Shown here: in pieces, positions 16,901 through 19,192 of the stretch
Position numbering within the stretch: the first letter of the stretch is position 1
How the letters are laid out: each line of letters begins with the position of its first letter
Assembly: GCF_045037415.1 (NCBI RefSeq)
Contig: NZ_CP173438.1
Length of the DNA: 64,000 nt
Reading direction: 5' to 3' (one strand)
DNA from: Escherichia coli
Lineage (GTDB): Bacteria > Pseudomonadota > Gammaproteobacteria > Enterobacterales > Enterobacteriaceae
Made by a program: the position numbers

Positions 16901-19192
16901 ATAATTCGTTCTCGATAAGCTCAAGGCGGAGTAATGAGGTAAAAACGCGGAAGGGATTACGCGCCAGAGAAGCAGCATCAATGGGCCGAAATGCTGTCGA
17001 ATGTACCGGCACCCCTGCCTGCGAGAGATCGTAATAGCTCACCGGGTACATCCCCATAATGGCAAACATCCGCCGAAGAGTAGCAAGCTCTTGTGCAGTC
17101 CCAACGCGAATCGCCCCATGACGTTCAACATTCAGTCGCGCCAGTTCGTCTGCATTTACCATTTTTTCGTGCAGTTGAGGATTGTTTTCCAGCACCGCCA
17201 GATTTACATCAGCTACCAGTTCCAGCAGCGTGCCGTACTGCGGAACTTCTTGCTGGTACATGGCTGACATTGCCTGCGAAAACTGTTCCCGAATCTCATC
17301 CGCCGTGATGCTGTTCGCCATAGTGTCTGCCTCCAGTGGTCAGTAATCTGGAGTGTAGGTAACCGCATTCACTCCGGCTGGAAGAATTTACAAACTGTGA
17401 TCTCGCCGCGAAAACATCAATATTATCCATTTTGCTGTAACATAGTTGCTTTAATTGTTAATAATATTTTGCAATCAAGTTATCATAATAAAACAACTTC
17501 ACTTGTCAGCGACACCGCTTCGTTTTTAACATCGCTTATGGAAAAAAATAGTCTGTTTAGTCAGCGCATCCGTTTGCGCCACCTTCATACATTCGTAGCT
17601 GTCGCACAACAAGGAACTTTGGGGCGCGCGGCTGAAACCCTTAATTTGAGTCAACCTGCGCTCTCTAAGACATTGAATGAACTGGAGCAGCTGACGGGCG
17701 CTCGCTTGTTTGAGCGTGGTCGTCAGGGGGCGCAACTTACCTTACCCGGCGAACAATTTTTAACGCATGCAGTCAGAGTTCTTGACGCCATCAACACTGC
17801 CGGACAGTCGCTTCATCGTAAAGAAGGTCTTAATAATGATGTCGTCAGGGTTGGTGCGCTACCTACTGCGGCACTAGGGATATTACCTTCGGTTATAGGT
17901 CAGTTTCATCAGCAACAAAAAGAGACGACCTTGCAAGTTGCGACAATGAGTAACCCTATGATTCTGGCGGGTTTAAAAACCGGGGAAATCGATATCGGCA
18001 TTGGTCGGATGTCAGATCCTGAACTGATGAACGGGCTTAATTACGAACTACTGTTTCTTGAATCGCTGAAGCTGGTTGTCCGCCCTAATCACCCGCTACT
18101 TCAGGAGAACGTAACGCTAAGCCGGGTGCTGGAATGGCCGGTCGTTGTATCACCAGAAGGCACTGCGCCACGCCAGCATTCAGATGCATTAGTGCAGAGC
18201 CAGGGATGTAAAATTCCTTCGGGTTGTATCGAAACGCTGTCTGCTTCGCTATCTCGTCAACTTACGGTTGAATACGATTACGTGTGGTTTGTCCCTTCTG
18301 GCGCTGTAAAAGACGACCTGCGTCATGCCACGCTGGTAGCCCTGCCTGTTCCGGGACATGGTGCAGGCGAACCGATTGGAATACTGACCCGCGTAGATGC
18401 GACGTTCTCTTCTGGTTGCCAGTTGATGATTAACGCTATTCGAAAATCAATGCCGTTCTGAAAGGTGAAGGGATCTGTCGATCCCTCCTTTAACATTTTC
18501 ACACCGTAGCAAAACTAACTGGTTCACCCGCTCCTCGTGGTTCTGCCGACACAGAATGTTTGTTCAGACGGAATACGTCCACCGCCTCAGTTAGTCGTGC
18601 CGCCTGTTCTTCAAGGGACACCGCCGCCGTTGAGGCCTCTTCTACCAGAGAAGCATTCTGTTGCGTCACCTTATCCATTTCAGAAATCGCCTGGCTAACC
18701 TGCGTTATGCCTCGACTTTGTTCACCCGAGGCGGTGGCGATTTCCTGCATGATATGTGTGACACTCGCGACGGCATCAACAATAGTGCACATGGTTTTCC
18801 CTGCCGTTGCCACCTCATCCGATCCCAGGTCAATTAACCTGACTGATTCACTGATCAAGCCTTCAATCTCTTTCGCCGCCTGGGCGCTGCGGCTTGCGAG
18901 TGTCCGTACTTCGCTGGCGACAACGGCAAATCCACGGCCTTGCGAGAGTAACGAATGATTAAACTGGCTAAACCGAATGACGAAAAATTCTGGAAAGCAG
19001 CACGCGATTTCGTCAGGTGATTATTTTCGTCCCTAAGGAAACCACATAGGATGCTCACGGGTGCCTGAGACTTTCTGTTTTCAGGCTAACCTGGAATCAG
19101 AAAGACGAAGGCCCCGACCGATATTTCTATCAACCGAGGCCAACGAATGAACCTAGCAATTCAGATCTTAGCCTCTTACCCGCCATCCGGCA

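Follow-up and report, generated by a model that had tools for sequence, protein, structure and literature searches.

We read the trg locus of the window (the whole stretch of 64,000 nucleotides of Escherichia coli DNA analysed here) as the old B2 deletion allele of trg: an inherited, dead remnant that leaves the strain with no Trg receptor and leaves hokB, mokB and sokB untouched. We give this reading a probability of about 0.9. One blunt deletion of 1,333 bp took trg codons 1-399 together with the trg-proximal 137 bp of the hokB-trg intergenic region. With this DNA went a sigma-28-type -10 element (GCCGATGA), the region for ribosome binding, and the ATG. The remainder encodes only the C-terminal arm of the signalling hairpin, with neither a promoter nor a canonical start codon. 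As first noted, the finding matters little, since it is an ordinary and well-known lineage marker.

The trg remnant and its deletion junction

The gene order around the locus is aldA-gapC-cybB-ydcA-hokB/mokB-trg-ydcI-ydcJ(hglS)-opgD, with trg on the minus strand. The convergent neighbour ydcI (LysR-type regulator; 17538-18461, plus strand) is intact, which fixes the position as the trg locus. The remnant occupies 18499-18943 on the minus strand (445 nt) and corresponds to K-12 trg nucleotides 1197-1641, as given by alignment, translation, Pfam, and the RefSeq annotation of the near-identical strain SK1144. It has the orthologous position between hokB and ydcI, where K-12 carries Trg (the ribose/galactose chemoreceptor), and its nucleotide sequence closely matches the 3' end of trg: the 644-bp block that holds it (18943-18300) is 97.2% identical to K-12. 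At the same coordinates, RefSeq lists for SK1144 'trg, incomplete, missing N-terminus' as a pseudogene.

Translation of the minus strand at 18499-18943 gives Trg residues 400-546 and the stop, 147 codons in all, with the frame ending in EPVSFATV before the stop at 18499-18501. This agrees with the sequence-only reading, which had described a gene reduced to about 150 C-terminal codons and had correctly given K-12 Trg as a protein of 546 aa. The remnant shares 142 of its 147 residues with K-12 Trg.

To define the breakpoint, as that reading had proposed, we aligned the window to the locus of K-12 MG1655 (L002, where trg spans 2805-4445). Two collinear blocks were obtained, one pairing window 19700-18944 with L002 1911-2667 and the other pairing window 18943-18300 with L002 4001-4644; L002 2668-4000 (1,333 bp) is absent and the junction lies between 18943 and 18944. 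The loss takes in 137 bp of upstream DNA as well as trg nucleotides 1-1,196. Intergenic DNA joins trg nucleotide 1197 directly, with zero extra bases, and inspection of the junction revealed neither microhomology nor filler bases, and nothing left of an IS element. The sequence upstream had been called unrelated, and here the alignment corrects the picture: it is the native K-12 hokB-trg intergenic DNA. The retained K-12-homologous part upstream of hokB spans 18944-19058 and presumably contains the hokB promoter region. The in-frame stops described there do exist, after 26 open codons, and the distance from the junction to the mokB start (19147), put at about 200 bp, measures 203 bp.

At the protein level, the break falls at the hairpin-tip motif (AARAGE/QGRGF), and only the C-terminal arm of the cytoplasmic signalling hairpin is left. 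The MCPsignal domain (PF00015) matches the remnant with E=3.8e-28, only over model positions 66-172 of 172, and the Pfam search of the remnant returned no domain besides this partial one. The remnant therefore has just part of the MCPsignal hairpin and not both arms of its four-helix bundle. With codons 1-399 deleted, the N-terminal transmembrane segments, the periplasmic ligand-interaction domain and HAMP are also gone. Compared with K-12 Trg, the window is without residues 1-399 (TM1, periplasmic sensing domain, TM2, HAMP, and N-terminal hairpin arm), and K-12 trg has a promoter and a start codon where the remnant has neither.

Trg-dependent taxis would be lost because the promoter, the start codon, the ligand-binding domain, the transmembrane segments, HAMP, and half of the signalling hairpin are missing. 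From what is known of chemotaxis and from published data on uropathogenic E. coli (UPEC), a response of the strain to ribose or galactose by way of RbsB/MglB and Trg is not expected. The loss of this taxis had already been predicted from the sequence; the missing parts and the UPEC/B2 literature, as far as it is quoted in PMC3559539 and PMC12623472, support the prediction.

The loss of trg is an already known difference between B2/UPEC strains and K-12, described since 2006. Strain CFT073 encodes only tsr, tar, and aer (PMC3559539), and loss of Trg and Tap is described as common in UPEC (Lane et al. 2006, J Bacteriol 188:5618, as cited in PMC3559539). According to Lee et al. (EMBO J 2025; PMC12623472), B2 strains keep Tar, Tsr and Aer and have lost Tap, and their trg is truncated; this truncated gene was long taken for a pseudogene (Borziak 2013, as cited in PMC12623472). 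As these earlier descriptions are cited (Lane 2006; Borziak 2013), the truncated trg of B2 and uropathogenic E. coli matches the window in locus, lineage and outcome, and nothing essential differs.

Expression signals of the remnant and comparison with Tls

Upstream of Q400, the 26 open codons end at a TAA and include no ATG, GTG or TTG. The only near-cognate codons among them are ATC (19008) and ATT (18978), and neither is preceded by a Shine-Dalgarno sequence. The nearest canonical start is the TTG at 18858, whose product would have 119 aa. A consensus scan of the minus strand upstream of the remnant found no sigma-70-like promoter. The only close match to a sigma-28 -10 element on the minus strand, GCAGATAA (19246-19239), has a poor -35 and is most likely due to chance.

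The trg gene is a sigma-28 class 3 gene. In K-12, GCCGATGA lies at L002 2758-2765, 40-47 bp before the ATG (2805), and matches the sigma-28 -10 consensus at 7 of 8 positions; we take it to be the working trg promoter element. Both this element and the trg ATG fall inside the deleted interval (L002 2668-4000), and the remnant is left without its own class 3 sigma-28 promoter and start codon. Besides, a terminator-like hairpin (19110-19141, minus strand; 14 pairs and a T-rich tail) lies between sokB and the remnant and reads toward the remnant. It is probably the SokB terminator, placed where the SokB stem-loop is expected. With no start, Shine-Dalgarno sequence or promoter seen, and with this hairpin in between, nothing visible drives transcription or translation of the remnant. 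Together with one published negative assay, these signals make an untranslated, silent pseudogene the most likely state.

The main rival to a silent pseudogene is a remnant that still works as a gene, either as a Tls-like regulator (a TlsN* variant) that represses flagellar genes through FlhDC or with some other activity. Such a regulator was described by Lee et al., who reported that the S13/UTI89-type remnant encodes Tls, a Trg-like signalling protein that represses flagellar genes by sequestering FlhDC in polar foci (PMC12623472). The Trg-derived part of Tls (residues 400-546) is the same segment as in the window, and the trg-side junction is also the same, including the preceding 9 bp (GTTACTCTC). 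The reading frame of the window remnant is still open, and the form found in strain E2348/69, which has the window's N-terminus, is listed by Lee et al. as a 'Tls variant' (PMC12623472).

What separates the two forms is the N-terminus, the main determinant of Tls activity (PMC12623472). In Tls it reads MNVRIVLLS (TlsN), with an essential arginine, R4; E2348/69 carries instead a variant N-terminus without that arginine, named TlsN*, whose sequence is given in Appendix Fig. S2 (PMC12623472). The window has the C-terminal fragment of Tls (Trg residues 400-546), but it does not have MNVRIVLLS with R4 fused to it in frame. Its pseudo-N-terminus, encoded on the minus strand within 18944-19058, is exactly TlsN* of E2348/69, with an ATT codon (18978-18980) in place of the M codon. 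When expressed from a plasmid, a TlsN*-mCherry fusion neither localised to the poles nor repressed flagellar genes (PMC12623472), a result that speaks against a working remnant and that was obtained with a fusion rather than with the full-length native remnant.

The expression signals also argue against a working product: the proposed ATT start has no Shine-Dalgarno sequence, the TTG at 18858 would give just 119 aa, the scan detected no promoter, and the deletion took away the native sigma-28-type element.

The sequence of the remnant itself bears few marks of decay. All 147 codons are open, and the five amino-acid differences from K-12 are not specific to the window branch. Across the remnant, the window differs from K-12 by 11 synonymous and 5 non-synonymous changes, the latter all common to strain UM146; on the window branch alone there are 2 synonymous and 0 non-synonymous changes, far too few to judge selection. 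The absence of visible decay counts against a dead gene but says little, because ST131 is too clonal. Taken together, we consider a working remnant improbable and retain the silent pseudogene.

Annotation should record the remnant as the B2 trg deletion in its 'TlsN*' (non-Tls) form. The distinction matters because in other B2 lineages a near-identical remnant works to regulate flagellar synthesis.

The hokB locus and the spread of the deletion

Next to the remnant, the type I toxin locus carries hokB at 19205-19354 (plus strand; 49 aa), identical to K-12 HokB and the same RefSeq protein (WP_001320773.1), and mokB at 19147-19314 (plus strand; 55 aa), identical to K-12 MokB. The 5' leader of the hokB mRNA, which is the target of the sokB antisense RNA, lies at 19059-19210 (plus strand) and matches Rfam model RF01794 over its whole length (positions 1-157 of 157; 108.4 bits, gathering score 59). 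The locus combines a short hydrophobic Hok reading frame and an overlapping mok frame with a conserved, structured 5' leader and a Sok antisense region.

The comparison with K-12 hokB/mokB/sokB gives identical proteins, a full-length RF01794 match and the same flanks on the ydcA/yncP side. The two loci differ only beyond about 115 bp upstream of the leader, where K-12 has the trg promoter and the window has the trg 3' fragment. The whole 757-bp block (19700-18944) is collinear with K-12 and 97.4% identical. The claim that hokB/mokB is intact therefore holds, and calling the locus intact, that is, as intact as in K-12, is justified as far as its sequence goes.

An intact appearance could still mislead if the loss of upstream control sequences had disabled or deregulated hokB. 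Assuming, by analogy with hok of plasmid R1, that the hokB mRNA begins near 19059, the breakpoint would lie only about 115 bp upstream of it, and this closeness is what the idea draws on. A stretch of 115 bp is ample for a bacterial core promoter, and the DNA left upstream of the leader thus has room for one. Between the breakpoint and the end of hokB, the window is collinear with K-12 within the block described above, with identical proteins and the full-length leader match. We regard disturbed control of hokB as very improbable, and an untouched hokB/mokB/sokB locus as the better description.

The window contains what would be a second toxin-antitoxin locus, a degraded one: the SK1144 annotation lists at 4877-5113 (minus strand) a hicB antitoxin fragment with its N-terminus missing and no hicA beside it.

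In a census of 5,426 complete E. coli genomes, 4,496 retain the segment deleted in the window (at least 80% covered). A 50-mer across the window's junction (18919-18968; at least 80% covered) is found in 602 of the 5,426, and one across a second, nested junction (L003 3225-3274) in 308; the three classes total 5,406. The trg deletion is thus common to about a sixth of sequenced E. coli (602 + 308). Carriers of the window-type junction come from humans, animals, wastewater and soil, and include SE15, records named O25b:H4-ST131, a soil isolate and a pig isolate. The two deletion alleles differ by about 1% in their flanking DNA, which makes the deletion event old. We conclude that the trg deletion is inherited and lineage-wide and did not arise recently in this strain.

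An assembly or sequencing artefact, which the sequence-only reading had named as what would overturn it, or a recent mutation private to this isolate is excluded by the census and had nothing in its favour: an identical junction 50-mer is in 602 independent complete genomes, the 308 genomes with the second allele contain the trg-side junction as well, and the flanking divergence of about 1% points to an old event.

Many genomes, several with O25b:H4-ST131 in their names, match the first 25 kb of the window at 100% identity, and the window differs from SK1144 by 4 mismatches in 35.5 kb. To judge by these matches, the window is from an ST131-like B2 E. coli.

A different, independent trg deletion is present in isolate VREC0864 (NZ_LR536431.1; locus L011, about 4062-4065), whose flanking proteins are K-12-like. 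It removed K-12 L002 3233-4419 (1,187 bp) and kept the 5' end of trg and its last 26 nt. Thus, trg has been lost more than once. The B2 strains 536, ECOR64 and ECOR65, in turn, have a full-length trg.

A possible origin of tls, and other features of the window

Genomes with Tls carry an extra deletion of 297 bp that the window does not have, and the window keeps hokB. The segment deleted in this UTI89/UM146-type allele is present in the window at 18953-19249 by alignment, and it carries the starts of both hokB and mokB, together with the hokB leader/sokB and promoter regions. Just beyond it, at 19250-19266 on the minus strand, lies GTG AAT GTC AGA ATC GT, antisense to hokB codons and the source of MNVRIV in Tls lineages. 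In the window, these bases begin a separate, unrelated reading frame of 32 aa (19168-19266), and the MNVRIV codons sit 297 bp away.

Four genomes, UM146, A13, ATCC 25922 and NC101, all read ...GTGAATGTCAGAATCGT/GTTACTCTC/GCAAGG..., with slashes at the joins. The last join is the window's junction and the first is the second deletion (window 18953-19249). This second deletion puts GTG AAT GTC AGA ATC GT in frame with G TTA CTC TCG CAA, giving MNVRIVLLSQ... (TlsN). It also destroys hokB, mokB and sokB; what is left over appears in RefSeq as "Hok/Gef family protein, missing N-terminus". In all four of the UTI89/UM146-type genomes examined (at 3240-3260 of locus L003, and also in L008, L009 and L010), 2 bp (GA) are missing just upstream of the GTG; this removes an AGGAG that is found at the same spot in the window.

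From this nested structure, we lean towards a birth of tls in two steps, in which the window allele would be a surviving intermediate. In the first step, the 1,333-bp deletion would have killed trg, a state that would survive in ST131, E2348/69 and others with hokB intact. In the second, in other B2 lineages (UTI89, UM146, ATCC 25922, NC101), the 297-bp deletion would have fused a GTG start and five or more codons antisense to hokB to the dead remnant, through 9 bp of intergenic DNA that supply LLS. The same stroke that made Tls would have removed the hokB/mokB/sokB toxin-antitoxin locus. The structural order would then run from a K-12-like state through the window type to the Tls type.

The window-type allele is a structural intermediate because the Tls allele contains the window's junction, and the order of the alleles rests on this nesting of junctions and not on a tree. 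In a neighbour-joining tree of 3 kb of flanking DNA, the deletion alleles group against K-12 and the pair formed by the window and SK1144 branches first. However, the window-type genome DCE7 nests among the second-deletion genomes, so that the tree supports the order only loosely and recombination is likely.

This two-step origin is the only part of our results that goes beyond the literature covered here. It may not have been spelled out in print, because Lee et al. draw a single deletion against MG1655 and mention the loss of mokB, never of hokB (PMC12623472). If it is true, ST131 and UTI89-type strains differ in both Tls and HokB: the pandemic clone ST131 would be without FlhDC control of the Tls type but would have the HokB persistence toxin, and classical UPEC lineages would be the opposite. 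Moreover, tls would be a compact example of a regulator built from a dead receptor and antisense codons of a toxin gene.

Elsewhere in the window, on the far side of hokB, gapC (20563-21564, plus strand) encodes an uninterrupted glyceraldehyde-3-phosphate dehydrogenase of 333 aa, whereas the K-12 gene is a pseudogene with a frameshift and an internal stop. A reading frame of 2,838 aa at 30162-38678 (minus strand) encodes a giant autotransporter of the BigA/YdbA type with tandem repeats of about 294 bp; its repeat array is 87 bp shorter than in SK1144 and the frame stays open. Between this gene and ydbL, at about 39000-39600, the SK1144 annotation places only a paaY fragment and a fragment of a helix-turn-helix gene, which suggests that the phenylacetate (paa) cluster was deleted in this lineage.

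At about 53000-53400 (SK1144 locus L005, 3699-4057), annotated fragments of a DUF1627 gene and of a tyrosine recombinase adjoin ttcA and look like a scar left where a prophage was integrated or lost. The frameshift annotated in dgcM of SK1144 was dropped for the window, where the frame is open over 430 aa (57194-58486, plus strand). Finally, four small RNAs score above the Rfam gathering thresholds: RydC between ydcA and cybB (19770-19833, plus strand), MicC (48723-48843, minus strand), FnrS (55803-55920, minus strand) and McaS (62787-62882, plus strand).
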